Virus record (IMG/VR): IMGVR_UViG_3300045988_117571
Span: 1 to 41,554 of that record
DNA: 41,554 nt
Source: a virus
Reading direction: 5' to 3' (one strand)
In this document: in pieces, positions 6,591 through 23,672 of the stretch
Position numbering within the stretch: the stretch's first letter is position 1
Layout of the letters: each line of letters begins with the position of its first letter
Notes under the pieces: model-generated
Databases searched by the model: none
Seen by the model: the letters and a program-made list of their open reading frames with translations, nothing else
Told to the model about the DNA's origin: nothing
Made by a program: the position numbers and the translations under genes

Positions 6591-6998
6591 ATGGCAGTAT
6601 TGCCCACCGACAATTTGGATCTGAGCGGCGCGGTCCGGTATGAGGACCAGCCCGGGCGGACCTGGAAGATCGACCGGGAGAAGGGCCGGATCGTGGGGGA
6701 GTGCGACAACTGGGAGGCGGCCCGCCAGGCGGTGGAGATCATCCTCTGGACGGAGCGCTTTCGGTGGCAGATCTACTCCCCATACTCTGGGGTACAGTAT
6801 GACGGGCTCATCGGCCTGGACCCCGGGTATGTGGCGGCGGAGCTCAAGCGCCGGGTCCGGGCGGCCCTGATGATGGACAGCCGGGTCACCGGGATCGAGA
6901 ACTACTCCTATACCTTTTCCGAGGGCATTTTGCACGCTGAGTTCACCGTGATCACGGTGTTCGGCGGCATCGACCAGAGCGTGGAGGTGACGATTTGA
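6591..6998 (+). CDS. Baseplate wedge protein (XkdS / DUF2634, gp25-like)
   Basis: 135 aa. Contains the motif TWKIDREKGRIVG..D..EA..QAVEIILWTERF and lies directly before the baseplate J gene. Confidence 0.6.
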   Translation: MAVLPTDNLDLSGAVRYEDQPGRTWKIDREKGRIVGECDNWEAARQAVEIILWTERFRWQIYSPYSGVQYDGLIGLDPGYVAAELKRRVRAALMMDSRVTGIENYSYTFSEGILHAEFTVITVFGGIDQSVEVTI

Positions 6999-8140: not shown

Positions 8141-9029
8141 CCCGCAGATCTGTAAGTATCTCCCCACCTGGTACAAGCCGGTGGAGGAGTACCAGCAGAT
8201 CTGTCAGACGGAGACGGCCCAACTGGAAGTCCTGGCGGCCGCTATCCATGCGGTGAAAGAGAACTTCTACTTCCAGACCATGAGCCTGCCCGGGGTGGAG
8301 ATGTGGGAGGATGTGCTGCGCATCATCCCCAACCCCAGCACGGAGGACCTGGACTTCCGGCGGGCCAGGGTGCTCAACCGCATCACCACCAAGCCGCCCT
8401 TCACCCTGGGCTTCCTCTATCAGAAGCTGGACGAGCTCATCGGCCCGGGGGAGTGGTCCGTGACGGTGGACTACGCCAACTACACCCTGTACATCGAGAG
8501 CGCCGCCCAGAACTTCAACTACTCCACCGAGGTGGCCTTTACCATCAACCGCATCAAGCCCGCCCACATCGTCTTCGTGTCCTCGCCCTATGTAAAGAGC
8601 GGCCTGCTGCTCAGCGAGACGATCTCCCACGGGCTTCGGACCTACAACTACCACATGGCGAGCTGGCAGCTGGGGCTGCTGCCCTTCGCCACCGACACCG
8701 ACCTGGGGGTGATCAAAACGGCTGAGACACCGAGCATCCAAGAGGCCCTGCTGAACGGCACGGCGGGCTTTGTCATGGGGGACATCGCGTCCGCCCGCAT
8801 CAACGGCACCACGGCCATTTCGGCCATATCCAAGAGCCAGGAGGGGAGCACGGTCACCATCACCTATACCGTCACTGAGGCCACGGCCTCCAGCGTGACC
8901 CAGGTGGAGCTGCTGGATAGCGAGGGGAACGTGCTGACCAGCTCCACGGTGTACATCCCGGTGAGCGGCTCTGTCCTGATGAAGCATACCATACCTGTCT
9001 CGGAAGGAGTGTTACCAGATGGCGACTAA
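8121..9029 (+). CDS. Baseplate/tail protein (XkdU / YmfQ, DUF2313-like)
   Basis: 302 aa. The N-terminus (YLPTWYKPVEEYQQICQTETAQLEVL) is typical of the YmfQ family. It follows baseplate J. Confidence 0.6.
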   Translation: MNRVQLDPQICKYLPTWYKPVEEYQQICQTETAQLEVLAAAIHAVKENFYFQTMSLPGVEMWEDVLRIIPNPSTEDLDFRRARVLNRITTKPPFTLGFLYQKLDELIGPGEWSVTVDYANYTLYIESAAQNFNYSTEVAFTINRIKPAHIVFVSSPYVKSGLLLSETISHGLRTYNYHMASWQLGLLPFATDTDLGVIKTAETPSIQEALLNGTAGFVMGDIASARINGTTAISAISKSQEGSTVTITYTVTEATASSVTQVELLDSEGNVLTSSTVYIPVSGSVLMKHTIPVSEGVLPDGD

Positions 9030-9306
9030 ACCGATCCCGGCACCGCTGCTGGCGGACCTGCCGGAGGACTGGACCGTAGGCCAGACCGTGGCCCCCACCG
9101 GGGAGGAGGTGGGCCTCACCCAGCAGCACGGGTACAACTACCTGATGGAGAAGGTCAACGAGGCCATCCAGGCCATCAACGCCCTCAATGAGGGCTTTGA
9201 GGATGTGGGCGGCTTCATCGAGATGGAACAGAGCCTGCCAGTGGGCGACCGGGTGGAGAACACGCTGTATGGGCTCATCCTGGTGGATTTTTCAGCAGAT
9301 ATATAA
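9019..9306 (+). CDS. Short tail-fibre-N-terminus-like protein (hypothetical)
   Basis: 95 aa, with RBS GGAAGGAG. The GLTQQHGYNYLMEKVNEAIQAINAL pattern resembles fibre N-terminal anchor regions. It ends at an AT-rich intergenic break. Confidence 0.45.
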   Translation: MATKPIPAPLLADLPEDWTVGQTVAPTGEEVGLTQQHGYNYLMEKVNEAIQAINALNEGFEDVGGFIEMEQSLPVGDRVENTLYGLILVDFSADI

Positions 9307-9377
9307 TCTATATTGCTTTTAATCCAAACGTACCCAGTTGACAATTTTCATCACCCTTTCAAAAGGAGGTTTTGCCT

Positions 9378-11279
9378 ATGAGCACCCGCTATGTGTGGGG
9401 GAGATATAACGCAACACCAGGCCTGACCAGCACCGTATCCGGACATGTTTATGATGGAGAACAAGAAACGATTATTACAGCAGACGAGGGCAAATTGTCC
9501 GGTAATGTTGGAACAATTTATTTTGCTGAATTTTCGCTTTGGGACCAAAATGACGTGAGTGCGTTTAAGCCAACTGGTATTAAAAACATCAAAACGATCA
9601 ATCCAGGAAACACAACAATAGAGCTATTGGGGAATGGTTTATTTTTGTTTTCTAAATCTCCTATTAATACCAATTCTACGTTCCCTGTTGGATGCGAATT
9701 TTATGACTCCGATGAAACAAGCAGTATCACCATCAGTTGGAATAATATATCTGCGCAAAGCGCCACGATAAAGGTCCTACAATCGAAAATTTATTATTCC
9801 AAGGGTGCCCTCCTGGGCGATTCCACCAGCGCTTTATCTGGAGCGTATCCCCAGAACGGGGTCTCCGGTAGATATTGGTATACTTACCAGGGGAGCGATA
9901 ATATTGACCCCACCGCCGTCTCCATCCCCTCCACCATCAATGGCGGCACAGCTATCAACATCACCGTCACACCGGGCACCGGCAAGGTCTACGGCGGAAC
10001 GGTCTCCTACCAGTACCAGGTCAAGTTGGGGAGCGGCGAGTGGACCACTATCGCTACCACATCCGCCACAACTCGCTCTTACACCGTCCCATACGGCACA
10101 GCATCCATCCAAGTTCGGGTGCGGGCGAAGGACAACCTGGGATTCACTTCGACGACCTACGTCACCAGCGCCTCCGTTACGGTCATCAACAACCAGCCGC
10201 CCACGGCCCCCGGCAGTATCGATGTGGCCAACGTGGTGGCGGGACAGCAGGCCACTATCACCCTGACGGCGGCCACCGACCCGGACGGCACCATCGCCAG
10301 CTACATCTATGAGCGGAGCGTGGACGGCAGCGCATGGACGCAGATCGCCAACGTCAACATCCTGACGCAGACGGACACCATCAGCGCAGACTGGGGTACG
10401 GTGGCGTACCGGGCCTGCGCCGTGGACGATGACGGGGCGAGCGGCCCCTATGTGACCAGCGAGACCACCACGGTCAACTCCGGGTGGGTCATCATCTCCG
10501 GCCCGGCCAGCGACATGGGGAACAAGCCAGCGCCGTTTGATTTTGTGTTCAGCGTCAGCGTGACTGGCCAGGCAAGTGTGGACGCCATCAACGTGGCCGT
10601 GACCCTGGACGGGGAGAGTATCTACACCGGAACGCCCAACAGCGGCGTGGAGGTGTCCATCCCCATCGACACCCGGCTGCTGGCGGCTGGGGAGCACACT
10701 GTGGAGGTCCAAGCTACAAAGGAGAGCTACCTGGAGGCCAACGGAAGTTACACCTTCGACGTGCCCGCCATCACCCTGCCCGACGGTGGCAGGGCGGAGA
10801 TGCTGCAAAATCCCGAGGGGGACGTGGTGTTCCCGTATACGTTGGCCAGAATGGTCATCGGAAAGGGTGGGAAAGACCTGAACGCCCTACTGGAGCAGGC
10901 CATGTCCACTGTGGCCACACTGACCGGGGAGGTCGGGGGAATCACCGGGGAAGTGACTGAGCTAAAGGCCGGGGCGCTGAAAATGGCAACTGGAAGCTAT
11001 ACGGGGACGGGAACAAATCAAATGTCATTAACATTCGATTTTGCTGTGAAGTTTTTGTTTGTTTTGCAGACGAGCGATAGCTCTTCCGGCAATTTTAAGG
11101 TTGGCAATTTAGTTTGGGTAGGGCAATCACAAGATGCTGAAATTAATTCAGAATCTATTAGCTATACCGTGTCAAATAATGGAAAGACGCTAACATGGAA
11201 CGGACCAACACTTGGCGGTTTTGTTTCGAACCAGAATTACTCTGGTTATCGGTATAGTTACTTTGCCATTGGCCAATAA
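9378..11279 (+). CDS. Tail fibre / receptor-binding protein with two FN3-like repeats
   Basis: About 633 aa from the ATG at 9378 (GGAGG 8 nt upstream; the track start at 9372 is a TTG). Two Ig/FN3-like repeats are visible (PTAVSIP...VTV and PTAPGSIDV...TTTV). The N- and C-terminal segments have much lower GC than the centre. Confidence 0.7.
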   Translation: MSTRYVWGRYNATPGLTSTVSGHVYDGEQETIITADEGKLSGNVGTIYFAEFSLWDQNDVSAFKPTGIKNIKTINPGNTTIELLGNGLFLFSKSPINTNSTFPVGCEFYDSDETSSITISWNNISAQSATIKVLQSKIYYSKGALLGDSTSALSGAYPQNGVSGRYWYTYQGSDNIDPTAVSIPSTINGGTAINITVTPGTGKVYGGTVSYQYQVKLGSGEWTTIATTSATTRSYTVPYGTASIQVRVRAKDNLGFTSTTYVTSASVTVINNQPPTAPGSIDVANVVAGQQATITLTAATDPDGTIASYIYERSVDGSAWTQIANVNILTQTDTISADWGTVAYRACAVDDDGASGPYVTSETTTVNSGWVIISGPASDMGNKPAPFDFVFSVSVTGQASVDAINVAVTLDGESIYTGTPNSGVEVSIPIDTRLLAAGEHTVEVQATKESYLEANGSYTFDVPAITLPDGGRAEMLQNPEGDVVFPYTLARMVIGKGGKDLNALLEQAMSTVATLTGEVGGITGEVTELKAGALKMATGSYTGTGTNQMSLTFDFAVKFLFVLQTSDSSSGNFKVGNLVWVGQSQDAEINSESISYTVSNNGKTLTWNGPTLGGFVSNQNYSGYRYSYFAIGQ

Positions 11280-11290
11280 GGAGGGGCACC

Positions 11291-11581
11291 ATGAAGATCA
11301 TATCCAAAACCCCCGCTGAAAACGGGGCATACCCCGCACTCCAGGAGTGGCCGGGCCTGGTGGCACCAGAAAGCCATTATAAATGGCCGGACACCCTGGA
11401 GACGGAAACCTTTTACCAGTACAATGGCTTCGTGGCCCTCACCGTGGTCCGGAGCATGGTGCAGAGCTACCAGCCCAACGTGGAGGCGTGGGAGGCGTGG
11501 AAAGCCACGCTTCCCCCCGAGCCGGAGCCGGGCGCGAGCGATACAGACGTGCTAAATACTCTGCTGGGGGTGACAGAATGA
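11291..11581 (+). CDS. Hypothetical protein (possible XkdW-like fibre accessory)
   Basis: 96 aa with RBS AAGGAGG. The call rests on position only. Confidence 0.4.
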   Translation: MKIISKTPAENGAYPALQEWPGLVAPESHYKWPDTLETETFYQYNGFVALTVVRSMVQSYQPNVEAWEAWKATLPPEPEPGASDTDVLNTLLGVTE

Positions 11582-12219
11582 ATCGACTGCAAGCGGCGGA
11601 ACAGTTGAGAAAGGTGCTTCAAATTTTCGCGGCAACCTTGACGGATGAACAGGCGATGGTGGTGGCCACGGTGTACCCCACATGGACGGTGAACACGGCT
11701 TATGCTGTGGGGGATATCATCAGCTACGGTACCAACGACGTGGGCGACCCACAGTTATACAAGGTCGTACAGGCGCACACCTCCCAGGCCCAGTGGACAC
11801 CGGACACGGTGCCGAGCCTGTATGACGCATTTGGTTTGGACGAAAGCGGGTATCCCCTGTGGGTACAGCCCAGTGGGGCACACGACGCATACAACGCGGG
11901 GGATATCGTCAACTACAACGGGACGCTGTACCAGTCCACCATCAACGGCAATGTGTGGTCCCCGGACGTGTACCCGGCGGGCTGGACGGTGTATGAGGCG
12001 GCCACGGAGCCAGAGGAGCCCGAACCGGATCCTGAACCAGAACCGGACCCGGAGGAGCCCACCACCTATCCCGAGTGGGTACAGCCCAGTGGGGCACACG
12101 ACGCATACAACGCGGGGGCTGTGGTCACTTACAACGGCAAGGTGTATCAGTCCCTTGTAGACGGCAATGTGTGGAGCCCGGCGGACTACCCCCAGGGCTG
12201 GCAGGAGGTGGAGGCGTGA
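11578..12219 (+). CDS. Carbohydrate-binding protein with three CBM5/12-like (chitin-binding-type) repeats
   Basis: 213 aa from the ATG at 11578 (ATGA overlap with the upstream stop). It has three units of the pattern W..(T/S)..Y..GD.V.Y.G..Y....H.S...W.P. The last two are WVQPSGAHDAYNAG..V.YNG..YQS...GNVWSP..YP.GW, separated by a Pro/Glu/Asp linker. Confidence 0.65.
   Translation: MNRLQAAEQLRKVLQIFAATLTDEQAMVVATVYPTWTVNTAYAVGDIISYGTNDVGDPQLYKVVQAHTSQAQWTPDTVPSLYDAFGLDESGYPLWVQPSGAHDAYNAGDIVNYNGTLYQSTINGNVWSPDVYPAGWTVYEAATEPEEPEPDPEPEPDPEEPTTYPEWVQPSGAHDAYNAGAVVTYNGKVYQSLVDGNVWSPADYPQGWQEVEA
11859..11902 (+). repeat. 44-nt perfect direct repeat, copy 1 (within the CBM gene)
   Basis: gtgggtacagcccagtggggcacacgacgcatacaacgcggggg is identical at 12075..12118, an offset of 216 nt (72 codons). 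Confidence 0.9.
12075..12118 (+). repeat. 44-nt perfect direct repeat, copy 2
   Basis: Identical to 11859..11902. Confidence 0.9.
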
Positions 12220-12521
12220 TCGAGGTGGTCTGTGCACTGATCGCCGCCGTGGCCTCCATCCTGGCCGCCACGGCGGAGGTACGGTCCCGGCGGTCTGCTA
12301 CTCGGATGGAGCGCCGGGCGGATCGGCGGTCCCACGAGATGCGCCTGAGCATGGAGTTGATGTACGCCACCTGTGCCCTGTCCCTGACCACGGCCAAAAA
12401 GCTGGCCGGGATGCACACCAACGGGGACGTGGAGGAGGCTATGCGGGCGGCAGAGGAGGCCCAGGAGGCCTATATCAACTTCGCCCGGGACGAGGCAGCC
12501 AAGAACTTTACCAAGATGTAA
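12216..12521 (+). CDS. Small membrane protein (lysis-cassette associated, hypothetical)
   Basis: 101 aa from a GTG at 12216 (GTGA overlap with the upstream stop). The N-terminus is a hydrophobic helix (IEVVCALIAAVASILAATA), followed by a charged helical tail. Confidence 0.5.
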   Translation: MIEVVCALIAAVASILAATAEVRSRRSATRMERRADRRSHEMRLSMELMYATCALSLTTAKKLAGMHTNGDVEEAMRAAEEAQEAYINFARDEAAKNFTKM

Positions 12522-12546
12522 TATCCCTGAAGCAAGGAGGTATAAC

Positions 12547-12753
12547 ATGCAGAACATCATCAAACGACTGGCCACGCTGCTGAGCGTGAAGAGCCTGGTC
12601 ACCCTGGTGCTGACAGGGGTGTTCGCCTATATGGCGTGTACCGGCCAGATCAGCCAGGACTTCATGACCATCTATGCGGTGATCATCGCCTTCTACTTCG
12701 GCACCCAGAGCCAGAAGGTGCAGGACGCGATTGAGGCGGGGGATGGGCTATGA
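12547..12753 (+). CDS. Holin
   Basis: 68 aa with two predicted TM helices and a charged C-terminus. RBS AAGGAGG. Its stop overlaps the endolysin start (ATGA). Confidence 0.75.
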   Translation: MQNIIKRLATLLSVKSLVTLVLTGVFAYMACTGQISQDFMTIYAVIIAFYFGTQSQKVQDAIEAGDGL

Positions 12754-13517
12754 ACCTGCATCAGCTTATCCTGACGGAAAACGACTGCTATAAGGCGGGA
12801 CGGGCCATCATCCCCAAGGGGGTGATGGTCCACTCCACAGGGGCCAACAACCCAAATTTGAAGCGCTATGTGGGCCCGGATGACGGCCTGCTGGGGACCA
12901 ACCAGAACAACAACCACTGGAACCGCTCCGGGGTGGGGGCCTGCGTCCACGCCTTCATCGGCAAGCTGGCGGACGGGTCCATCGCCACCTACCAGACCCT
13001 ACCCTGGAATATGCGGGGTTGGCACTGCGGCAAGAACGGCAACAATACCCATATCAGCTTTGAAATTTGCGAGGACGACCTAACCGACGGGGACTACTTC
13101 AACGCCGTCTACCGGGAGGCGGTGGAGCTGACGGCTTACCTGTGTGAGATATACGGCCTTGACCCCCTGGATGATGGGGTGGTCATCTGCCACTCGGAAG
13201 GATACCGCAGGGGCATCGCCTCCGGCCACGCCGACGTAGAGCACTGGTTCCCCCGGTTCGGCAAGAGTATGGACGATTTCAGGGCCGACGTGGCCACAGA
13301 AATGGAGGAAAACATGAGCTACGAACAGTGGAAGGAATACATGGAGCGGTACCGGAAGGAGCTGAGAGAGTTGCCCGGTTCCGACTGGTCTCAGGATGCC
13401 CGAGATTGGGCCATCCAAAACGGCGTATTCCGGGGCGATGAGAAGGGCAACGCCATGTGGCAGGACTTCATTACACGGGAACAGGTGGCGCAGGTCATGG
13501 AGCGCCTGCACGAATGA
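12750..13517 (+). CDS. Endolysin, N-acetylmuramoyl-L-alanine amidase (Amidase_2/PGRP fold)
   Basis: 255 aa. Motifs: VMVHSTGANNP, GWHCG, ISFEICED, VICHSEG...GHADVEHW. It lies immediately after the holin. Confidence 0.85.
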   Translation: MNLHQLILTENDCYKAGRAIIPKGVMVHSTGANNPNLKRYVGPDDGLLGTNQNNNHWNRSGVGACVHAFIGKLADGSIATYQTLPWNMRGWHCGKNGNNTHISFEICEDDLTDGDYFNAVYREAVELTAYLCEIYGLDPLDDGVVICHSEGYRRGIASGHADVEHWFPRFGKSMDDFRADVATEMEENMSYEQWKEYMERYRKELRELPGSDWSQDARDWAIQNGVFRGDEKGNAMWQDFITREQVAQVMERLHE

Positions 13518-13876: not shown

Positions 13877-14191
13877 TCACTCAATAACCCCCATCAGGCG
13901 CAAAATCAGGTCCACCTGCCAGACATCAGAAACAGCCCCTACTACTGCTCCGGCGGTTATCCATTCGGATAACCGCCATTTCTGTATGTCTTCCGGGCTC
14001 TCCGAGGTGTCCCTCTTACACTCGAACGCCACCATACGCCCTTGTATACTTCCTATTATATCAGGTGTCCCCCGCTCAGAAAAGACGTTGCCGTGAATGT
14101 TGATCGCTTTGGCTCCTGGTATGGAGTTGAGGTAGTCCAACACAGGCCGGACTACCCCAGTATACTCCAACCGCTTGTCACGGTTTGGCAC
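13877..14191 (-). CDS. VRR-NUC domain nuclease
   Basis: 104 aa. PD-(D/E)xK signature GTPDIIG ... VAFECK. It is the last gene of the minus arm and overlaps the upstream gene by 14 nt. Confidence 0.7.
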   Translation of the reverse strand: MPNRDKRLEYTGVVRPVLDYLNSIPGAKAINIHGNVFSERGTPDIIGSIQGRMVAFECKRDTSESPEDIQKWRLSEWITAGAVVGAVSDVWQVDLILRLMGVIE

Positions 14192-14582
14192 GTCTGATAA
14201 GCCTCCCTACCTCGTCGCTAACAATTTTCATCTGCGCCTCTCTAGTGGGAATGTCCTGCATGTCGGGCTTTTTCTCCTCGGTCCACAGGGCCATGAGGAG
14301 GTTAGTGGCCGCCGCGGCCAAGTGATCCTCGTCTGTCCATCCATCCATATATTTGGCCATATGCCGCATCGCCGAATCAAGCATGGTATGCATGGGTATA
14401 CCTTTTTCCCAGTTGCGCTCAGGGTAGTGACCTGATGTTACAGAGTTTTCCATGTGCTTAGACACCCTGATCAACGCGCACCACGGGAGCAAGTCCATAC
14501 GACCCTTTCCTCCAGTGTCCCTGATGGCACCAGTCTCAAATTTCTCCACAACGTTACCTCCCCGTAGAACCAAATCCGGCAT
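14178..14582 (-). CDS. dATP/dGTP pyrophosphohydrolase N-domain-like protein (DUF5664 / MazZ-N-like)
   Basis: 134 aa. The pattern GKGRMDLLPW..L..V...ME......Y.ERNWEKG....M..SAMRHM..Y..G..DEDHLAAAATNLLMAL matches my memory of the DUF5664 (dGTP_diPhyd_N) family. It overlaps the dUTPase gene by 29 nt. Confidence 0.6.
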   Translation of the reverse strand: MPDLVLRGGNVVEKFETGAIRDTGGKGRMDLLPWCALIRVSKHMENSVTSGHYPERNWEKGIPMHTMLDSAMRHMAKYMDGWTDEDHLAAAATNLLMALWTEEKKPDMQDIPTREAQMKIVSDEVGRLIRRAKP

Positions 14583-14988
14583 CCCCGCGCTTGCCGGGCA
14601 CCGCCTTGATCTCGTCTACCTCAGACCATCGTACATCTTCGATAACGTGGAACAGAACCTGGGCCAGGCGCATACCTTGTTCCACGTGAAACATCTTATT
14701 CCCGAGATTGTGTACACACACGAATAACTCCCCGGTATACCCATTATCAATAATACCCTCATTAATTAGGAGACCGTGTTTTCTAAGACTACTGGATCGT
14801 CCGGTAATCCGAGCATACAGGAACGGGGGCATATCAATTCTAACACCTGTATGCACATCCACTGTCTCCCCAGGCGGAATATCACAAGGTTGTGACACGA
14901 ACAAGTCCCACCCGGCGTCCCCCTGGTGCTTCTTGAAGGGGCGCTTAGCGCCCTCTTCAAGTGTGTAACTAACGTACCTAGCCGCCAT
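14554..14988 (-). CDS. dut: Trimeric dUTPase-fold nucleotide pyrophosphatase
   Basis: About 144 aa. Motifs: AGWDL, GRSS, GIIDNGYTGEL, RGDAGFGSTGR. Its ATG overlaps the stop of the upstream AdSS-like gene (TGATG). Confidence 0.85.
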   Translation of the reverse strand: MAARYVSYTLEEGAKRPFKKHQGDAGWDLFVSQPCDIPPGETVDVHTGVRIDMPPFLYARITGRSSSLRKHGLLINEGIIDNGYTGELFVCVHNLGNKMFHVEQGMRLAQVLFHVIEDVRWSEVDEIKAVPGKRGDAGFGSTGR

Positions 14989-16037
14989 CACCGCACCTCC
15001 ACCATGGTATCAGGGCCAGTACCGATGTACTTAACCATACCAAGTACACCAACTTCTTTCATGAACTCAAACAGGATTCTGGAGTTCATAACCGCCTTGG
15101 GATCCTCACACCCATACAGGCTAGGGTCCACATAGTCAACAAACATCAGGGCCACTTCTGTGGGGGAGTTCAGCATGCACGACTGTTCAAACAGCTCGTG
15201 GTCCCATTCTGCGATTCTGCGGATTTTCTTGGTTACCGTAGTTCTTTCGGACACCTCTTTACCGATCCGTCTGGACAGCTCCTCCCAGGAGATTTCATTC
15301 TTCATGGGGCCGGAGTTGCCCGCAACTCGGATGGGGTAGGTGCGGCACACCATCAAAACGTTGGTAACACGGGAGGGAGCAATACCCACTTCAGAGATGA
15401 TGCCCGCTGCGTTGGTATCGATGCTGGTACAGTACGGCCAGTGACTGTGCAGCAGGGACAGCGCAGACCCCTGTGTACCCTCTATTAAGATGTTGGCTCC
15501 TTCGTCCTGGAAGCTTGCGATCAGCGCTGGGGTATTGCTGCGCATACACTCGCAGAGACCGTACTCCTCGGCAACATCCTTAAACTGACGGAATTTGCTG
15601 GGGTCTCTCTGCAGTCTGGCGATGCGGGCCGGTCCAACACCCTCGCCGGTGGAACCGATGCGGCGATGCATCTCGCCACTGGTCCCTCCCTCCTCTTCGT
15701 GGAACTTCTCGTCCAAAATACCTGCTTCGGGATCCACGATCAGACGACCGAGGAAATCAGGGTAATGTCTCATAATGTGTACCAGCTCTTTCATGAACTG
15801 CTTCATGTTGAGCAGAGCCCCACGCCCAATAATGACAGTAGCATTAGGGTTAATCCATCCGCACGGGATGGACTGCATCACGTGTTTCTCCCCATTCCAA
15901 TAAATGGTGTGACCGGCGTTGGGGGAGCCTACCCTCACATGGACCTGGTATTCGTTGGCCACGTGTGCCGCTACCGCGCCTTTACCCTCGGATCCGTACT
16001 GGCCACCAACCAGCACTGTCAGTTTTCCTCGTTCCAT
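14988..16037 (-). CDS. purZ: Adenylosuccinate synthetase homologue, short phage type (PurZ-like candidate)
   Basis: 349 aa. Motifs: GGQYGSEGKG P-loop, NAGHT, IGSTGEGVGPA, IEGTQG, YPIRVAGNSGP, TTVTKKIRR. It is much shorter than bacterial PurA. It is flanked by a pyrophosphatase, a dUTPase, a HAD phosphatase and PolA. Confidence 0.7.
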   Translation of the reverse strand: MERGKLTVLVGGQYGSEGKGAVAAHVANEYQVHVRVGSPNAGHTIYWNGEKHVMQSIPCGWINPNATVIIGRGALLNMKQFMKELVHIMRHYPDFLGRLIVDPEAGILDEKFHEEEGGTSGEMHRRIGSTGEGVGPARIARLQRDPSKFRQFKDVAEEYGLCECMRSNTPALIASFQDEGANILIEGTQGSALSLLHSHWPYCTSIDTNAAGIISEVGIAPSRVTNVLMVCRTYPIRVAGNSGPMKNEISWEELSRRIGKEVSERTTVTKKIRRIAEWDHELFEQSCMLNSPTEVALMFVDYVDPSLYGCEDPKAVMNSRILFEFMKEVGVLGMVKYIGTGPDTMVEVR

Positions 16038-16426
16038 TCCAAAATTCTCCTTACATTTTTAATGGTTATGTCCACAGCGGTCCCCGTGGAAAAAACGTCT
16101 TGCACCACCACAAAATTGGGATTGTGGTCATCAATGTAGACATCCGCGTACACCTTTCTTGTGCCGCTGGGGTATTTCGCCTTATACTTAGCAATATTGC
16201 TGGGCGCATTTTCGTTCACGGCGCAGAAGTGGATCCCCCGCACCTCACACCAATCAACCGCTGCCGTGAGTTCTTCTCCAACTCTGGAGGTCCATAGAAC
16301 GACCTCGTGTCCTTTATCAATCACTTCCCGAATGAAGGACACCATTTCGTCATGCTGGGGGCCGATTTCAGGAAATCGGTTCTCACATAAAATTCCGTCA
16401 AAATCCACTGCTATGATCACTGACAT
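16019..16426 (-). CDS. HAD-superfamily phosphatase (nucleotidase-like)
   Basis: 135 aa from the ATG at 16426, with GGAGG upstream. The track ORF extends to 16558, but that part has no RBS and is Arg-rich and implausible. Motifs: I AVDFDGIL, II WTSR, IV YIDDH. It overlaps the purZ-like start by 19 nt. Confidence 0.65.
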   Translation of the reverse strand: MSVIIAVDFDGILCENRFPEIGPQHDEMVSFIREVIDKGHEVVLWTSRVGEELTAAVDWCEVRGIHFCAVNENAPSNIAKYKAKYPSGTRKVYADVYIDDHNPNFVVVQDVFSTGTAVDITIKNVRRILEWNEEN

Positions 16427-16494
16427 ACCTTCTTTCTGGCCTCCCGTGGCCTCTTCCTTGCGCTTGAGGCCACGGGGGTACTCACATACCGACC

Positions 16495-18315
16495 TCACCC
16501 GTCTGAGCCAACGGAGCGCAACGGAGGGGGCACGACGATGTCTTCTCCTGGCTTCCACTTCTTGAATGTTCCCCAGGACCTACCGTACTCAACGTCCACA
16601 CCTACTGCCGGAACAAAGTCGAAGTCTTCCATGATAGTCTTGATGGCGGGTATGGCCACCTTCAGTTGGTCGTCCGGGACCTCAAACATCACGGAGTCGT
16701 GTACCTGCAGTAGCATATACCCTCCAATGTCCAGCATGGCCGGGAACAGTCTAGATATTGCCACTCTGACGATCTCAGCAACACCACCCTGAATTAAGTT
16801 GGACATCGCCTTGTGGGGGTCAGCCTCCGGAACGTTAAAATGCCGGGTTCTGCCGGTCCACATCTTGATGTACCCGTTTTGCTTGGCAAAATCCTCACAT
16901 TGATACATCAGCTTGCGGAATCCGGGGTACAGCTTGTGGTACCGTTCCAAGTAGTCCCGCGCCACTTCTTGCTCCACCCGCAAGTTTTCGGCTAGGTGCT
17001 TATATCCTATACCATAAATTACCGAGAAATTGATCCGCTTAGCCGCATTACGAGGAATCCCCAACAACTCAGCGGTTGCGGAGTGTAGGTCCGCGTCCTG
17101 CTCGATCAACCCCCGCATTGTAGCATCCTTGGTGTAGTGGGTCACCAGTCGCATTTCAGCTTGCTTGTAGTCTGCCTGGATCATCGTATATCCGGACCTG
17201 GCCTCAAACACATCCTTCACCTTGAACACCTCAGTGTGCTTTGCCACTGCCTGCAGATTCGGGTTACTACACGACAGACGTCCAGTGTACGTACCGATTA
17301 GGTTTAAGGAACAATGGAGAGCATTGTCAGAATCCATAGCCTCGATATACGGCGTGTAGTACCTGCTGTCCACCGACAACCACCCACGGGCCTCCTGCAC
17401 CAATTTAGCCCGTTCGGCTCCCTCCCCACCAGCATCAATCAACTCCTGCAGACGCTCTGCTGCCGAGGACTTTACTCCAAGGAACTCGCACACTTTCTTC
17501 GACGAATTTGGGTTGAGATCGAACCCAGCTTTGGTGTTCAGTCTCTCTTTAGCATCTTTAGAGTGCTGTACTGCTTCATTCCTATACTTGGAAATGGTGT
17601 CGGGGTTGATAAGCATCCCGCGCTGCTCCATCAGCATCACCACGTAACTGTAGTAGTTTACCTGTCTCCAGATATCATACAAACCGTGATATTGCAAAGC
17701 TGGCCTGACGAGTTCCAACAGCGCCCTGGTGAGCCTAACATCGTCACAAGCGTACGGTTCCACGTCTGCCGGATCCAACACATACATCATAGATTTTACG
17801 TTGTTTTCAGATTTCGGATTCCTACTGCATGGGAGCCCTAGGCGCTGGCACTCTTCGAATACCTTATCCTCAAGGATGGATTCTTGTAGGGATCCTTCCC
17901 CAATACCATATCGGTCACATATCTCTTTCAATTTGAACGATGGTTCATTCTCGTTAAGTAGATGTACTGCCAGCATGGCATCTTCAAAATTGGGGGCTGG
18001 GACAATTCCATCTGTAGACATCATATGTTCGTCGAAACTGTAGTTAAACCCGCCATACGTCCTATGCGGATCCGACAGGTACCCTCGGAAGAATTTCATA
18101 CACTCTATCGGCAAGTTGGTTCCCTGTGCATGCCGGAAAGGAAAATAGTAGGCTTCTTCCCCTCGATCCACAGCAATACCTATCACTTTGTCCTGCTTTC
18201 TCTTGGAGTTGCCGAAGATGCACAAACCAGTGGTTTCGGTGTCCACACATGGGTCTGTGCAGGACAGGAGCAGGGGTTTGACCTTCTCCAGCATCTCCGG
18301 TGTGTTGACGAGCAT
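16495..18315 (-). CDS. Family A DNA polymerase with 3'-5' exonuclease domain (DpoZ candidate)
   Basis: 606 aa. Exo motifs: DTETTGL, FNYSFDEHM, YACDDV. Pol motifs: A DYKQAEMRL, B RNAAKRINFSVIYG, C QVHDSVMFE. Confidence 0.9.
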   Translation of the reverse strand: MLVNTPEMLEKVKPLLLSCTDPCVDTETTGLCIFGNSKRKQDKVIGIAVDRGEEAYYFPFRHAQGTNLPIECMKFFRGYLSDPHRTYGGFNYSFDEHMMSTDGIVPAPNFEDAMLAVHLLNENEPSFKLKEICDRYGIGEGSLQESILEDKVFEECQRLGLPCSRNPKSENNVKSMMYVLDPADVEPYACDDVRLTRALLELVRPALQYHGLYDIWRQVNYYSYVVMLMEQRGMLINPDTISKYRNEAVQHSKDAKERLNTKAGFDLNPNSSKKVCEFLGVKSSAAERLQELIDAGGEGAERAKLVQEARGWLSVDSRYYTPYIEAMDSDNALHCSLNLIGTYTGRLSCSNPNLQAVAKHTEVFKVKDVFEARSGYTMIQADYKQAEMRLVTHYTKDATMRGLIEQDADLHSATAELLGIPRNAAKRINFSVIYGIGYKHLAENLRVEQEVARDYLERYHKLYPGFRKLMYQCEDFAKQNGYIKMWTGRTRHFNVPEADPHKAMSNLIQGGVAEIVRVAISRLFPAMLDIGGYMLLQVHDSVMFEVPDDQLKVAIPAIKTIMEDFDFVPAVGVDVEYGRSWGTFKKWKPGEDIVVPPPLRSVGSDG

Positions 18316-18800
18316 CAGCCCTCTCTGGCCTCAGCCAGCTCCTTGAGAGTCATCACACGGGAGATTTGGGAGCGGGCTTGGCCGTTGTACTCAGTCACCT
18401 CAATAAGGGCGCCGCAGTCTTTACCAACCACATCAGACCGTTTGAATTTAACTACCTGACCTTGCTGTCCCACACCAAGGGCCATCACGGTTTCCGCTAC
18501 CTTCCACATAGCAGCAGGGGTGATGGCCGTAAACACCTTGAACTCCCGACCAGTGTAATTACCCTCTACCACTGCGAACGTCCAGACGAACATCGGGTTG
18601 CCGCTCTTAGAAACGGACTGCTCCACATCGTTGCAACACACCTTATACAAGCCATCTGGAACCTTAAAGTTGTCCTGTACATTGGTGAGATCAATCTCAA
18701 AAGCATCCGGAGAAGAAACGGAACTGTTACCGGGCATGGGGGACTGAGTGGAGGGAGCGGGGACTCCACCGGGGGCGGGCATAAAAGGGTTGTTAGTCAT
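18315..18800 (-). CDS. DUF669-like protein (SSB-like partner of the Sak4 ATPase)
   Basis: 161 aa. It lies directly downstream of the Sak4-like ATPase, as is usual. The core pattern is P.G.Y......VE...SK.G.PM.V..F.V.EG.Y.GR. Confidence 0.55.
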   Translation of the reverse strand: MTNNPFMPAPGGVPAPSTQSPMPGNSSVSSPDAFEIDLTNVQDNFKVPDGLYKVCCNDVEQSVSKSGNPMFVWTFAVVEGNYTGREFKVFTAITPAAMWKVAETVMALGVGQQGQVVKFKRSDVVGKDCGALIEVTEYNGQARSQISRVMTLKELAEAREG

Positions 18801-18815: not shown

Positions 18816-19595
18816 TTAATTGTTTAAATACTTCCCCATGATATCAACCATGTTGGGATCTCGAATGATTGGACCAATACGCTGAGCAAACTCACTGCCA
18901 CGGGTTTTAGCAGCAAAGTTGTTCATAGGCTGGGTGAGAAGGTATCTATGTGTCTCGCTGCGGTACCCAACTTCCTCGTTACCGGCCTGCTCGTCAGCGG
19001 TGTACAGATACCACACAAAGTCCATATACCCCATCACTGCCGTGCAAAGCTTCTCGGTCAGGTTGGGTTTGGACTCTTCTAGGACGTTGGTGCCCTTGCG
19101 CATTTTGTCTTTCTTGTGGGCGATGTAGATGACGTGCATCGGAAGGTCCCTAAACCCCCGCAGGATTCGGGCAAGGCGTTTGCCAGACACCCCGTAGTCC
19201 TCCAAGTAGACTTCATCAATGGAGTAATTCTTGTCCTTCTTGCGCCGATTGGCGAACTCCTTAGTGGTGATCCCCTCCAGTACCAGGGTTTGCAGCTCAG
19301 TAATGTTGTCAATCACCACGGTTTTGGTGTTTTCATACTTCGGATCGTGACTAACAATCCGGAAAAGTTCTTGCTCCAGATCATCTGCTGTGTGGATGTC
19401 CGTTGCATGAATGTCCCCACGGCTGGCCAACGTCATGATACCACCATCGATGTTGAAAACGTGGACATCAGCCATTTCTGGCACATCTTGGGCGGTACCG
19501 GCCAGGTAAGTCTTCCCACTTCCTGGGTCCCCATAAATTAAAACGTTGAGCTTACTCAGAAAGATGCTAGGTGTAATCAAATAACCGTCATTCAT
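18816..19595 (-). CDS. AAA/RecA-like ATPase (Sak4-type recombination protein)
   Basis: 259 aa. Walker A is YGDPGSGKT and Walker B-like is VVIDNITEL. It is paired with a DUF669 gene. Confidence 0.7.
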   Translation of the reverse strand: MNDGYLITPSIFLSKLNVLIYGDPGSGKTYLAGTAQDVPEMADVHVFNIDGGIMTLASRGDIHATDIHTADDLEQELFRIVSHDPKYENTKTVVIDNITELQTLVLEGITTKEFANRRKKDKNYSIDEVYLEDYGVSGKRLARILRGFRDLPMHVIYIAHKKDKMRKGTNVLEESKPNLTEKLCTAVMGYMDFVWYLYTADEQAGNEEVGYRSETHRYLLTQPMNNFAAKTRGSEFAQRIGPIIRDPNMVDIMGKYLNN

Positions 19596-19599: not shown

Positions 19600-19992
19600 T
19601 CACCTTCTTAGTATGTTTCCTTCCCAATCTACTACGCCCGTCCTAATTAGCTCAGGTATAGTCTTGTTGTTCCATCTACTGTGCAAAATGTGTAAGTGAC
19701 ACCTTTCGCACAGACACACAAGATTAGAAAATTCGTTATTGGTATTATCTTGGTCTTTATGGTGGATATGCAGTTCTACGCCATCATCACGGGTGGCTCC
19801 ACAATAGAAACATTCCCACACGCCACCTCCATCAGTATATGATCTCTTGTGAGGTAGCCCACGGTCTTGCATTCTGCGGTTGTTGCGTAGTCTCTGCTCC
19901 TCACTCAATTCGGATACCCTGTATTTGTGCTGATTGCGCCTTTTTGATTCTCTCTTGCATATCTTGGCTTTTTCAGGGTCTTTATACGGCAT
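19600..19992 (-). CDS. HNH endonuclease
   Basis: 130 aa. Motif: CFYCG...ELHIHHKD.D..NN...NLV.LC..CH..IH. Confidence 0.8.
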   Translation of the reverse strand: MPYKDPEKAKICKRESKRRNQHKYRVSELSEEQRLRNNRRMQDRGLPHKRSYTDGGGVWECFYCGATRDDGVELHIHHKDQDNTNNEFSNLVCLCERCHLHILHSRWNNKTIPELIRTGVVDWEGNILRR

Positions 19993-20001: not shown

Positions 20002-20571
20002 TCATGTCTTATCGATGTAGGTTGCGGCTTCATCTGCCACATGAAGCAGCCACGCCAGCCGGTTGTGCTCGAACACTTCCCCGGGCTTTCCGTAGTCCTG
20101 CCGGTCCCACGGCCCCATATGGCAATTGATAGCGGCGGCCTCAAACGGCTCCAGGCTCATAAAATGCTGGACCAGGTATACAGACTTGGACCCGTGTCCA
20201 CCGAACGGAAAACTCTCCTCGAATTTGTAGAAGGGCACCTTCTCCCATTGGCCGGTTTGGTCGTTCTTCACATTACGGGTGGACACTTTGTAGCACCCCA
20301 CCTTACACAGGTCGTGAAACAGGGCCACAATGGCCTCGGACTCCCGGCTGCACCTAGCTCCTTCCATGTCATAGAATTCGTTAAGGTCTTTCAATCGCCG
20401 GTATACGTTCAGACTGTGCATCGCTAATCCACCCTCGAACGCGCCATGGTACCGGCTGGACGCCGGAGCGGTGAAGAAATCAGTGGCCTGAATCCATTCG
20501 AGTAGCTTGTCAATCCCATCGCGGTGAATCCCCCGCTTGGCTATGGTCAAAAATTCATCCTTGATGTTCAT
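20002..20571 (-). CDS. HD-domain phosphohydrolase (DatZ-like dNTP hydrolase candidate)
   Basis: 189 aa. Metal-binding pattern: RYHG...H..., LFHDLCK, HGSKS, HVADEAA. Confidence 0.6.
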   Translation of the reverse strand: MNIKDEFLTIAKRGIHRDGIDKLLEWIQATDFFTAPASSRYHGAFEGGLAMHSLNVYRRLKDLNEFYDMEGARCSRESEAIVALFHDLCKVGCYKVSTRNVKNDQTGQWEKVPFYKFEESFPFGGHGSKSVYLVQHFMSLEPFEAAAINCHMGPWDRQDYGKPGEVFEHNRLAWLLHVADEAATYIDKT

Positions 20572-20591: not shown

Positions 20592-21716
20592 TTATACCAT
20601 GTTAGTGGGGGTGTTGTCAACACCCTTATTGTCATTCCTACCGCGAACGGTGTACTCACGTAGTCGGATCTCCTTTGCGTCGTAGTCTCTCAGCTCCGCC
20701 TGGCATAAGGATTGATATTGGCACATCTTGCAATTCCAGGGGTACATAAACCGCTTGTTTCCTCCCTTGTGGGACCTCTTCACGGCCCAGGATGCCGGTA
20801 CCACTACTTCGTCCCAGATTCTTTTCACGGTGGAGTCGTTGCGGTACTCGTAGGTTGCACGGAACCACTCAATATCAGCCAGCTTAGGCTCCATCTCTTC
20901 CCGGTATGGTTCCGGGTCCACCCCTTGGGCGGCACAAAATCGTGCGTAATGATTCCAGGTAGTCTTAATCTTGGTCCGGCTGATAGTCCCGTTCTTGTTC
21001 ACTGCCGGGTCTGCGGCCGGAGTGTTGCAGTGCTGCCAGGTCATGGTACCTGTGATCTTGATACCCATTTTGCTGCAAGCATGAGTATACACCGCGTTCT
21101 GGACGTTGTACGCTTCCTCGGTGTCGTCCGACAGGGATTTTCGGAATTTGTAATCAGTACACCATGTAAACCCCGTTTCCTTATCCCTGAGAATCGCATC
21201 AATATACCCATGTAGCCCCCCGGAGCCGGGACAAGGCACCAGAAAATGGAGCTCCAGCGCCGGTACGGGTTTGCCGCCCTTCTGCATCGTCACCACTTCA
21301 TACTTCCACGGCTCAAATTCATTAAACGCCTGAGTAAACACCGACACCGCGTCAGTCAAAATCTGCTCCTGGTCCGGGATCTCCTCTACCAAGAACTCGT
21401 TGTTCCTCATATACGTATCCCACTCGGCCACCATGGCGTCCACCCCGTTAGCCCTCCAGGACCCGTACAGCCCGCACTCATAGGAAGTATCTAGTCCATC
21501 TTGCTGGTCCTTCCACGCTTCCTGCATGGCGGTTTGCATTCCCTTGTGGCAGAGCTTACCTACCGTCAGGAACGGTCGTTCTACACGGGGCTTGAGGTTC
21601 TCAATGTAGTTGTACTCCCACTTCTTGGGGCAGCTCATATGCGTCATGAGCTGGGATACTGACACCATCCCCTCAGGGGTCGTCCCTTCCGGGAACAGGC
21701 ACTTGGTATTTTTCAT
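20592..21716 (-). CDS. PD-(D/E)XK / Cas4-RecB-like exonuclease with C-terminal Cys cluster
   Basis: 374 aa from the ATG at 21716 (GGAGG 8 nt upstream); the longer track ORF crosses the intergenic inverted repeat. Nuclease-core pattern: GYIDAIL..., TDYKF. C-terminal Cys cluster: CKMCQYQSLC. Confidence 0.65.
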   Translation of the reverse strand: MKNTKCLFPEGTTPEGMVSVSQLMTHMSCPKKWEYNYIENLKPRVERPFLTVGKLCHKGMQTAMQEAWKDQQDGLDTSYECGLYGSWRANGVDAMVAEWDTYMRNNEFLVEEIPDQEQILTDAVSVFTQAFNEFEPWKYEVVTMQKGGKPVPALELHFLVPCPGSGGLHGYIDAILRDKETGFTWCTDYKFRKSLSDDTEEAYNVQNAVYTHACSKMGIKITGTMTWQHCNTPAADPAVNKNGTISRTKIKTTWNHYARFCAAQGVDPEPYREEMEPKLADIEWFRATYEYRNDSTVKRIWDEVVVPASWAVKRSHKGGNKRFMYPWNCKMCQYQSLCQAELRDYDAKEIRLREYTVRGRNDNKGVDNTPTNMV

Positions 21717-21746
21717 GTTGTAACCTCCTGTTGTAGCCGCTCGGGT

Positions 21747-21792
21747 GTTGTATTGCATTGCACTCCCAAGGGAGATGCAATACAATACAACA
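21747..21792. repeat. Imperfect inverted repeat IR-1 (arms GTTGTATTGCATTGCACTCCC / GGGAGATGCAATACAATACAAC)
   Basis: Read by eye. It lies in the 141-nt gap between the primase-helicase stop and the nuclease start. The 19-nt core atgcaatacaatacaacaa (21775..21793) is identical to 31140..31158. Further TACAA/TTGTA half-sites lie at 21812..21848. Confidence 0.85.
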
Positions 21793-21857
21793 ACCTCGCC
21801 AACGGCCCGCACAATACAAGTTGTAGTTGTTGTATACCGTGTTGTAATGGCGCAACA

Positions 21858-23672
21858 TCACTCTACCCCTTTTCTCTTGTACCTCCCGTCGGGCATCTTC
21901 TCCACCATTCCAGCAGCCTCTAGTTGTCTGATCTGCCGGGAAATAGTGGAGCGGGTCTTGCCTGCCTTGCTGCACAGGTCCCCCTGGGACATTGGACCTT
22001 CCTGCATGAGGTCCAGCAAATTGGCCTGGGCGGGTTGTCGGTTCTCGGTGTTGGATAGGGCTTGATACTGGTTGGATACTACCTGATACTGCATGGGGTA
22101 CTTGGTGCTGATGTTGAAGGTCAACGAGATGGGGGGCTGGTTGCCCATCACCTTGGAATGGCGGCGCACTACTATTTCATTCGAGGCTAGGCGCGGATTG
22201 CGTCGCACCTGCCAACCGGCCTCCAGGAATGCGTTAAGAAATTGGGACCCCCAGGAATCCTCACGGGCCGTACTGTCCGGGTCCAGATTCTTCTTGGAGT
22301 GGTGGGCCAGCACAAACGAGCATCCATACTTGTCGCGCCATGTTTTCAGTACCATCATCTGGTTAGCTAGATCGGCCATGTAGTTGTCCACGGCTGCCGT
22401 GGTGGAGTATAGCGGGTCAATCATAATTACCTTGGGTCGGATCGTAGCGATCTGTTGCTCCAGCTCCTCCAGGACCTTTTTGTTGTCGAATCGTAGCATA
22501 CGGGACGGATGCACGTAAATCGGCAGGTCTGGCATACAAGGAACTTGCCATATATCCCCGTCAATGTTAGTCGTGGCCCCCAATTTCTGTTCCACAATTA
22601 GAGCTAAACGATCAGTTAGCCCGGTGTGGCTATCTTCCTGCTGGATGATTATAGTGGGACCTTTGTCGTTAACAGGATACCTTCCCAAGAATGGGACCCC
22701 GGAAGATATCGACACGGCTAGGTCTAGCAGTATCCAAGTCTTGTAGCTCTCAGGTGGAGAGATCAGGAAGGTAATACTTTTGTCCGGCAACCAGTCCTCC
22801 ACCAACCAGGAGACCCCCTCACCGCCGTATCCTTTGACATAGTCGGCCATACGCATGACATCAAATGTGGAGTGCTTTTGCTGCTGTTCCTTCTCTACGG
22901 CGGTCCGGTCGTCCTCAAACTGGACAGACGTAAACTGAGTTTCCTCAATTGCGTGGTTGCGCTCTATAGACTTGATGGTTGTCCGTATTTCCCGAACCGG
23001 CAACGGGGGGTCGTTCCGCTCGTTCCATTCCATCAATAGGGTCTCCACTATATCGGAGTTGATCCCCTTCTTGAAGAAATACCCGGCCAGTCGCGCACAG
23101 GCATCGTTCCTGCCGCCTTCGGAGACACCTCGGAGCGTTTCTGTTATCCACCCGTCATTTTGTACCCGGGGTTGTGCCTGAAGCTCAAGAAGAGCCACTG
23201 GGAACGCCCCGAGAGGCCCTCTCTTAACCCATTCGTACCTGTTGCCGTTCGGGTGAATTGTGGGGGGCAGTACGATGAACCCCCCGTCTGCTCTCAGGTC
23301 TGCCCCGTCGAAAATTCTCACTCTGTTGGACACGTGAGGAACAGAGGTTGGGTACTGATAGAACAGGTGGTACCCACCGGACCCTGTACGGGAGTACATT
23401 TGGGTCGGATACCTTCTTAGCAGGTCCTCGATGGAGTATGGGCAGCTAGCCTCCACATCCAGCACCACCATGTTGGACACTCTTCCGGTCACAACACCGA
23501 CTCCCACACCTGACAAATTGACGAACCACGACGTTACCATCTCTTTGGTAGCTTTCGTCTTGGTATATTGCAGCCAGTTGGTCATGAACGGACGTTTCTC
23601 CTCGGGCTTTACAGGCAACACACTCCAGCCGCTGTCCACATACTCAGCCGCTAAATCAATCGTCGTTGCCAT
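21858..23672 (-). CDS. Primase-polymerase / helicase fusion with C-terminal winged-helix domain
   Basis: 604 aa. The N-terminal bifunctional Prim-Pol pattern is GWSVLPV...KRP...W, GVGVVTG...VVLDVE. A PriCT-like motif GGRNDACARLAGYF follows. The central RepA/AAA_25-like P-loop is SPPESYKT. The C-terminal wHTH is GDLCSKAGKTRSTISRQIRQLEAAGMV. Confidence 0.8.
   Translation of the reverse strand: MATTIDLAAEYVDSGWSVLPVKPEEKRPFMTNWLQYTKTKATKEMVTSWFVNLSGVGVGVVTGRVSNMVVLDVEASCPYSIEDLLRRYPTQMYSRTGSGGYHLFYQYPTSVPHVSNRVRIFDGADLRADGGFIVLPPTIHPNGNRYEWVKRGPLGAFPVALLELQAQPRVQNDGWITETLRGVSEGGRNDACARLAGYFFKKGINSDIVETLLMEWNERNDPPLPVREIRTTIKSIERNHAIEETQFTSVQFEDDRTAVEKEQQQKHSTFDVMRMADYVKGYGGEGVSWLVEDWLPDKSITFLISPPESYKTWILLDLAVSISSGVPFLGRYPVNDKGPTIIIQQEDSHTGLTDRLALIVEQKLGATTNIDGDIWQVPCMPDLPIYVHPSRMLRFDNKKVLEELEQQIATIRPKVIMIDPLYSTTAAVDNYMADLANQMMVLKTWRDKYGCSFVLAHHSKKNLDPDSTAREDSWGSQFLNAFLEAGWQVRRNPRLASNEIVVRRHSKVMGNQPPISLTFNISTKYPMQYQVVSNQYQALSNTENRQPAQANLLDLMQEGPMSQGDLCSKAGKTRSTISRQIRQLEAAGMVEKMPDGRYKRKGVE

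Follow-up and report, generated by a model that had tools for sequence, protein, structure and literature searches.

What does a phosphatase of the HAD superfamily do when its gene runs into the start of a purZ-like gene? The question is raised by a complete virus record in IMG/VR (IMGVR_UViG_3300045988_117571), a stretch of 41,554 bp, hereafter the window, which CheckV estimates to be 100% complete and which carries direct terminal repeats. Its minus strand carries a block of genes for, in order, a family-A DNA polymerase (PolA), the HAD protein, the PurZ-like synthetase, a dUTPase-fold protein (Dut) and a DUF5664 protein, and judging from sequence this block is very probably a PurZ0-type module for DNA containing 2-aminoadenine (Z). 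Phages with Z genomes are a model for the viral rewiring of nucleotide pools into non-canonical DNA; laboratories make Z-DNA with enzymes taken from them.

An initial annotation of the stretch, made from its letters alone, regarded the HAD and Dut proteins as non-canonical additions to the Z genes; the gene that it called MazZ-N-like is the one for the DUF5664 protein. For Dut this view is outdated, and DUF5664 is no such addition either: DutZ and DUF5664-1 are the defining dATP/dGTP pyrophosphatases of PurZ0-type phages (PMC12884076). The HAD protein does lie outside the described gene set: neither the papers nearest to the subject nor full-text searches yielded any mention of a HAD phosphatase together with PurZ. 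By homology, then, Dut and DUF5664 are parts already known, whereas the HAD protein appears as a new element with a plausible role. We describe it here as an undescribed, lineage-specific accessory that is tightly and conservedly coupled to purZ, and consider what it might do.

Coupling of the HAD gene to purZ

The HAD gene (16019-16426, minus strand; 135 aa from the ATG at 16426) is followed by purZ (14988-16037, minus strand; 349 aa) and by dut (14554-14988, minus strand; 144 aa). Reading base by base places the HAD stop codon TGA at 16021-16019 and the PurZ ATG at 16037, which confirms the 19-nt overlap first reported, and a Shine-Dalgarno (SD) site, AAGGAG, lies 8 nt upstream of this ATG. 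The PurZ/Dut junction was likewise read as the expected TGATG (gcggTGATGgcg), a 1-nt overlap with GGAGG upstream of the Dut start. Independent gene calls on ENA, Logan and NCBI assemblies agree on both junctions.

The third reported overlap, of 29 nt between dut and the DUF5664 gene (14178-14582, minus strand), holds only with ATG 14582 as the start, and the open reading frame (ORF) has probably been over-called. We reach this view because an in-frame GTG at 14549, 4 nt past the Dut stop, is preceded at 7 nt by a GGGGAGG SD site, because alignments with DUF5664 homologues begin only at about residue 8-16, and because the spacing between the two genes ranges from +2 to +168 nt across 16 relatives. 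The likelier start on this sequence evidence is GTG 14549, with which the overlap vanishes.

The tight coupling that the initial annotation read from these overlaps stands in part. Overlap as such is ordinary, about half of the same-strand junctions in the window genome showing it (in longest-ORF calls). The HAD/PurZ and PurZ/Dut overlaps are real, however, and are kept in relatives: the former spacing ranges from -31 to +1 nt, that is overlapping or abutting, in 16/16 relatives, and the latter from -11 to +1 nt in 16 relatives. It is the conservation of the junctions, not the overlap itself, that is distinctive. The spacer between PolA and HAD, 68 nt in the window, is variable, being 68-400 nt in most relatives, with the genes overlapping in a few.

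We then considered how widely the two genes occur together. A scan of IMG/VR for purZ matched at least 598 stretches (580 confirmed), of which the best 80 were kept. Among 81 purZ loci, the HAD gene is found in one lineage of 17 members, always coupled to the purZ start, and in one further locus (L099). The order HAD-PurZ-Dut is invariant in all 17 members, at PurZ identities of 62-77% and HAD identities of 43-67%, and PolA lies upstream of HAD in 17/17 loci. Sister lineages keep the order AAA24-DUF669-PolA-PurZ-Dut and have no HAD gene. In the PurZ tree, every HAD-positive locus but L099 falls in one clade, so the linkage amounts essentially to one gain. The HAD protein of L099 is divergent, 103 aa long and encoded 5 kb upstream of purZ; it is the sole case of HAD with purZ outside the window lineage, and the only one in 48 purZ-bearing records from outside it (positive control 6e-53). 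The L099 locus (4369-12972) belongs to a low-GC phage contig in which the genes flanking purZ encode a thymidylate-kinase-like protein and an anaerobic ribonucleotide reductase. The co-occurrence check proposed in the initial annotation thus gives a divided answer: HAD does not track purZ in general, but within a single lineage it is invariant and coupled to purZ stop to start.

A capless phosphatase related to BT0820

The motifs originally picked out in the HAD protein (DFDG, WTSR and YIDDH) are present in the translation as AVDFDGI, LWTSR and YIDDH. They supply the four motifs of the superfamily, with D8-F-D10-G-I as motif I, T46 as motif II, K91 as motif III and D99-D100 as motif IV. In 35 homologues down to 29% identity, D8, D10, T46, K91 and D100 are invariant and D99 is nearly so. 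In the AlphaFold2 model (pLDDT 97) motif I is followed by a beta-hairpin (residues 14-24) and there is no cap; its fold matches are HAD phosphatases. Motifs and model together identify the protein as a predicted capless (C0) HAD-superfamily phosphatase of BT0820-like type, and with intact catalytic residues and a confidently modelled fold it looks enzymatically active.

The only close solved relative is BT_0820 (PDB ID: 2OBB; phmmer E 2e-18; Foldseek E 1.5e-10, 33% identity). The protein matches the NF046079 model, 'BT0820 family HAD-type phosphatase', at E 3e-26 with 92.4 bits. Since the equivalog cut-off is 165, it is a relative of this family only and not a member. A Pfam search gave no match at E up to 0.01, and a literature search on BT0820 and 2OBB returned nothing relevant.

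The protein was also compared with three better-known phosphatase types. The 5'(3')-deoxyribonucleotidases of NT5C or mitochondrial (mdN) type are capped HADs, unlike the capless window protein, which gave no PF06941 match at E up to 1; weak PF06941 matches occur in 2/35 of its relatives. Nor is it recognised by profile as a 3'-phosphatase of the polynucleotide kinase-phosphatase (PNKP) type, with no PF25109 match at E up to 1, and no kinase gene is adjacent. The phage protein AfhF (PDB ID: 9IQW), tried as a functional template, was rejected as a family match at a Foldseek E of 0.014 and a TM-score of 0.43; the other Foldseek matches are also weak, with TM-scores of about 0.4. Database names of the relatives are automatic and inconsistent, among them phosphoheptose isomerase, polynucleotide kinase, 5'-nucleotidase and acid phosphatase.

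Homologues at least 55% identical to the window protein number more than 100 in metagenomes. In an Enterococcus phage of the genus Schiekvirus, which has no purZ, a member of the family sits amid genes for ribonucleotide reductase, a deoxynucleoside kinase and a nicotinamide mononucleotide transporter. The family also occurs in fusions. In Lactobacillus phage LJ (L127, NC_048680.1; 3989-4945) a BT0820-like HAD forms the N-terminal part of an annotated head maturation protease (PHROG 24386), an unexpected partner given that the protease serves virion assembly. Two other loci have C-terminal additions, an HNH-type zinc-finger nuclease motif in L016 (3891-4475) and a DnaA-C-like helix-turn-helix in L028 (6004-6657); both hint at a DNA-associated role of the family in some phages. 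A more distant cousin (hhalign probability 97.9, 30% identity) is the small HAD of Enterococcus phage 9183 (L140, NC_055907.1; 2505-6232), where the gene order is Tmk-ThyA-Dut-small HAD-NDP-sugar (nucleoside diphosphate sugar) pyrophosphorylase-like, an arrangement resembling the AfhE/AfhF sugar-activation pair used in DNA glycosylation.

The surrounding module is of PurZ0 type

The PurZ-like protein (PF00709, E 2e-50; PHROG 1211) carries the substitution that marks the PurZ group, Ser in place of the catalytic Asp of PurA at the Asp13-equivalent P-loop position, within the motif GGQYGSEGKG. As in PurZ0, EGTQG is present and the insert of phiVC8-type PurZ is absent, and further indels are PurZ0-like. 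Its best solved relatives are, in order, Pyrococcus PurA (1.5e-51), Archimedes 7VF6 (1.4e-45), phiVC8 PurZ (5e-40) and S-2L PurZ (5e-27); 7VF6 is a PurZ0 that groups with Ghobes in the tree. With trees rooted on Pyrococcus PurA, the window protein lies in a clade of 17 rows (support 99) nested in a larger clade (96/98) that comprises neither the PurZ0 references nor classical PurZ. A quick tree made the window clade sister to PurZ0 (84); in a careful tree the backbone is a polytomy. Membership of the reference PurZ0 clade itself (Ghobes, Archimedes 7VF6, Wayne-like) was considered and dropped, the protein being placed in the separate clade (16 rows at 96/98). It scores 251.6 bits with the PurZ exception model of NCBIfam (NF038379), under the cut-off of 300, and 268.7 with the archaeal-type PurA model (NF003295), under that of 368. 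From these features we assign it to the PurZ group of synthetases (N6-succino-2-amino-2'-deoxyadenylate synthase type) and call it PurZ0-like.

Whether the Dut protein was an ordinary dUTPase or had a shifted specificity was left as an alternative in the initial annotation, and homology now answers in favour of the DutZ clade, whose specificity is relaxed. Poubanne et al. (NAR 2026; PMC12884076) found that the Dut homologues of PurZ0 phages, DutZ, hydrolyse dATP, dGTP and dUTP, as assayed for the Ghobes and Wayne proteins only; Ghobes DutZ acts on dATP with a kcat of 12.9 per second, and dutZ is present in 98/98 of the PurZ0 genomes that they surveyed. The window Dut (PF00692, E 2e-27; TIGR00576, 107.7 against a cut-off of 102.55) shares 46% identity with the Ghobes protein that was assayed and adjoins purZ in all relatives. 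Its best 60 matches among 50,697 phage records are all from PurZ0 actinophages (93-114 bits), canonical phage Duts scoring 50-77 bits. In a tree, it falls in one clade of 55 purZ-linked Duts that includes the DutZ of Ghobes, Supakev and Galactica (SH-aLRT 94), outside which fall all of the 11 canonical Duts that made up the background, a limited sampling. All five motifs are intact (GDAGWDL, GRSS, GIIDNGYTGE, RLAQ and RGDAGFGSTG), and the clade signature is present as GRSSxLRKxGL, where most sampled canonical Duts have PRSGL, together with GELF in motif III. We therefore regard it, by sequence, as a new member of the known DutZ clade.

The DUF5664 (dGTP_diPhyd_N) protein scores 64.6 bits with PF18909 (E 8e-18; cut-off 27) and is classed on this homology as a dATP/dGTP pyrophosphohydrolase-type protein, again a known component: DUF5664-1 likewise hydrolyses dATP, dGTP and dUTP (PMC12884076). 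It is 32% identical to DUF5664-1 of Supakev, and its nearest relatives from isolates are in Faecalibacterium and Bacillus phages, not in actinophages, which fits the published idea of repeated local recruitment of DUF5664. The conserved block opens with polA (16495-18315, minus strand), which encodes a family-A polymerase with a 3'-5' exonuclease (PF00476, 2.4e-63; PF01612, 1.4e-9) and is a candidate DpoZ-type polymerase.

HAD, DmtZ and other routes of adenine removal

PurZ0 phages dispose of dAMP with DmtZ, an enzyme of the NDT family that is both a dAMP N-glycosidase and a deoxyribose-5-phosphate transferase. DmtZ was scored in purZ loci with a hidden Markov model at E < 1e-20, a threshold chosen because the model, which includes fused DmtZ-Dut ORFs, hit Dut ORFs at 1e-4 to 1e-5. 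HAD alone was found in 18 of the 81 purZ loci, DmtZ alone in 38, neither in 25 and both in none; when only loci in which purZ is flanked on each side by 3 kb or more are counted, the numbers are 12, 17, 16 and 0. The HAD lineage thus has no DmtZ, and the complete window genome contained none in a PF05014 search or in tblastn searches, for which the queries were three DmtZ references and the divergent type described below. Nor was a DatZ homologue found in the complete genome.

The larger clade around the window does contain a divergent DmtZ-like gene, in loci L062/64/66, L071/72, L075, L078-81 and L083. These genes have an NDT fold of YLAGP type, are 27-30% identical to the DmtZ domains of Wayne and Galactica (the copy in L062 lies at 4947-5561), and accompany PurZ0-like clusters outside the actinophage reference clade. 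The copy in L071 lies 9 nt upstream of purZ, and so takes the slot that HAD holds in the window.

One other protein of the window may bear on the adenine pool. An HD-domain protein of 189 aa (20002-20571, minus strand; PF01966, 5e-6; PHROG 28876) is encoded 4 kb upstream in the same direction of transcription. Neither tblastn nor a search of the PDB showed it to resemble DatZ; it has no sequence similarity to YfbR, with a faint YhaM-like match, and it is present in 14/17 members of the HAD lineage, being absent from three basal members and from the sister lineages.

Possible functions of the HAD protein

A scheme that accommodates these genes would run as follows. By homology, DutZ and DUF5664 would split dGTP to dGMP, the substrate of PurZ, and would also split dATP to dAMP, clearing adenine from the dNTP pool. 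PurZ and host enzymes would carry dGMP on to dZTP, which the adjacent PolA would incorporate. Other PurZ0-type phages make the removal of dAMP irreversible with DmtZ, which cleaves it to adenine; in the window lineage, which lacks DmtZ, the HAD protein, taken as an active Mg-dependent phosphomonoesterase that was recruited there and translationally coupled to purZ, may stand in. It would hydrolyse dAMP, the substrate that we infer, to deoxyadenosine and phosphate, and thereby block the rebuilding of dATP by host adenylate kinase. DutZ or DUF5664 followed by HAD would be a two-step equivalent of DatZ, which takes dATP to deoxyadenosine. A precedent is known from the dU-DNA phage PBS1, whose mdN-like phosphatase Dtm removes canonical dTMP (PMC12697855). 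We tentatively favour the idea that the protein is a phosphatase of dAMP or of dNMPs replacing DmtZ, which on the sequence data rests on one evolutionary event; the narrower proposal, that it is a dAMP-selective 5'-nucleotidase and hence a third independently evolved means of adenine exclusion beside DatZ and DmtZ, seems somewhat doubtful.

Several points weigh against a role in dAMP removal. The exclusion of HAD and DmtZ gives a naive Fisher p of 1.3e-6, which counts relatives and not independent events, and on the trees the linkage of HAD to purZ traces essentially to one gain plus the distant case of L099; none of 29 HAD-bearing records from outside the lineage has purZ. HADs without a cap usually have macromolecules or sugar phosphates as their substrates, and their selection of small ones depends on oligomerisation. 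The enzyme would moreover have to leave dGMP, dZMP and the succinyl intermediate intact, which is demanding. Among characterised folds, those nearest to it belong mostly to capless phosphatases of sugar phosphates (phage AfhF, KdsC and GmhB), and the BT0820-like family has no assayed substrate at all, 2OBB having been deposited as a hypothetical protein. The family is also widespread in phages that lack purZ, with 300 phage records, chiefly from phages of Listeria, Bacillus, Klebsiella, Enterococcus, Salmonella and Porphyromonas and from crAss-like phages. Several sister lineages (L067, L069, L070 and L074) have neither HAD nor DmtZ, and DmtZ is absent from 13/98 published PurZ0 genomes (PMC12884076); a dAMP sink is therefore dispensable. 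Finally, the HD-domain protein, found in most members of the lineage, could itself be the real dATP or dAMP sink, or a further pool-editing enzyme.

Alternatively, the protein may be a small-molecule phosphatase with no Z-specific role, working as it does in the purZ-less phages where its family abounds and placed upstream of purZ by chance in the single gain event. Candidates are then a nucleotidase of general or pyrimidine type, a phosphatase of sugar (bis)phosphates like AfhF, KdsC or GmhB, or a pyrophosphatase; besides the nearest characterised folds, the gene order in Enterococcus phage 9183, where the distant cousin has Dut on one side and an NDP-sugar pyrophosphorylase on the other, speaks for this reading. 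However, the fold matches past 2OBB are weak, and no glycosyltransferase or NDP-sugar gene was seen by Pfam or PHROGs in the 38/56 called window ORFs that were scanned, the other 18 lying mostly in the virion arm. Chance placement also sits poorly with a stop/start coupling kept through about 40% protein divergence and with the mutual exclusion of HAD and DmtZ, and we consider this explanation somewhat unlikely.

A different proposal takes its cue from the gene in front: standing directly after PolA, the protein could be a polynucleotide 3'-phosphatase that heals DNA ends in replication or repair alongside the polymerase, as T4 polynucleotide kinase does with its phosphatase domain, and its coupling to purZ would be incidental operon packing. 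It shares the capless C0 architecture with PNKP, and 10/35 members of the family have weak matches to PF25109 (HAD_PNKP; best E 0.0018), although the window protein is not among them and has no kinase partner. In FP_Epona and Porphyromonas phages the family gene is found among replication genes, beside a helicase and Gam-like DNA-end proteins, and the fusions to HNH and DnaA-C-like domains point the same way. The name 'polynucleotide kinase' recurs among BFVD fold matches and in GenBank, but such names are automatic. The conserved tight junction, moreover, is with purZ and not with PolA, from which HAD is separated by a variable spacer, and end-healing leaves unexplained why HAD is present exactly where DmtZ is missing. 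On balance we regard a 3'-phosphatase as distinctly unlikely. It is extremely improbable that the gene is a hitch-hiking or decaying insertion, functionless by now. Its lack in sister lineages with the same PolA-PurZ-Dut synteny would agree with such an origin; against this, the ORF is intact in every clade member, the catalytic residues are conserved as described, the close metagenomic homologues are numerous, and both the translational coupling and the SD site have been maintained.

Surrounding genes and possible regulatory sequence

The spacer between PolA and HAD holds a GC-rich hairpin (16443-16476, minus strand) with a perfect stem of 11 bp and a folding free energy of -33.2 kcal/mol (z -3.9 against shuffles). 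It is not a canonical terminator, since no U-tract follows, and the terminator scan did not call it; lying ahead of the HAD-PurZ-Dut unit, it may act in mRNA processing, stability or attenuation. In a promoter and terminator scan of 13.7-20 kb, sites were no more numerous than in shuffled sequence.

The neighbouring genes are all on the minus strand. Past DUF5664 comes a small nuclease-like protein (13877-14191). Upstream of PolA are DUF669 (18315-18800), AAA_24 (18816-19595), an HNH protein (19600-19992), the HD-domain protein, a PD-(D/E)XK nuclease (20592-21812), a PrimPol-helicase (21858-23672), an SNF2 helicase (26755-28323) and a C5 DNA methylase (29911-30984). The genome encodes contractile tail genes (sheath, tape measure and baseplate J), and the host is probably a gut Firmicute.

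Comparison with known systems

The 2026 description of PurZ0 stressed functional convergence, in which different enzymes perform the same pool-editing task (Poubanne et al., PMC12884076). If the HAD protein does remove dAMP, it would be another independent solution to this task and a simple phosphatase tool, and, if selective for dAMP, would give a large family of HAD phosphatases from phages and Bacteroides its first substrate. A PurZ0-type system would at the same time extend from soil actinophages to abundant, probably gut-associated phages with contractile tails. Should HAD prove unrelated to Z-DNA, the finding comes down to one more member, new and divergent, of a system already known.

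That system is the PurZ0 cluster of actinophages such as Ghobes (a phage of Gordonia) and Wayne (a phage of Arthrobacter), which consists of PurZ0, DutZ, DUF5664-1 and DpoZ-1, with or without DmtZ (PMC12884076). The window resembles it in having a synthetase with Ser for Asp, a Dut of the DutZ clade directly downstream, a stand-alone DUF5664 and an adjacent family-A polymerase, and in lacking DatZ and MazZ. It differs in that its PurZ lies in a clade of its own (96/98), that it has no DmtZ and instead a BT0820-like HAD coupled upstream of purZ, and that its DUF5664 is nearest to homologues from Faecalibacterium and Bacillus phages, in a contractile-tailed phage whose hosts are probably, as far as can be inferred, gut Firmicutes.

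With the BT0820 family (2OBB, from Bacteroides thetaiotaomicron), the HAD protein shares the capless core, the same four motifs and a C-terminal motif of the RKVYADVYIDDHN type, while its own clade has an additional C-terminal helix (residues 114-134). With DmtZ it shares a proposed role, the irreversible removal of dAMP, and the slot before purZ seen in L071. Fold and chemistry are unrelated, a glycosidase yielding adenine in the one case and, as proposed, a phosphomonoesterase yielding deoxyadenosine in the other, and HAD would have none of the transferase activity by which Z is salvaged.

A parallel in logic is Dtm_PBS1, a phage phosphatase acting on a canonical dNMP so that the replacement base fills the genome, and structurally similar to the human mitochondrial deoxyribonucleotidase (PMC12697855). 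Its target is dTMP, however, and the window protein has no NT5C match. DatZ, which serves PurZ phages such as S-2L and phiVC8 as a dATP triphosphohydrolase with an HD domain, is a single enzyme with no homologue in the window; what the two arrangements would have in common is the net chemistry, the proposed pair of steps leading, as DatZ does alone, from dATP to deoxyadenosine.

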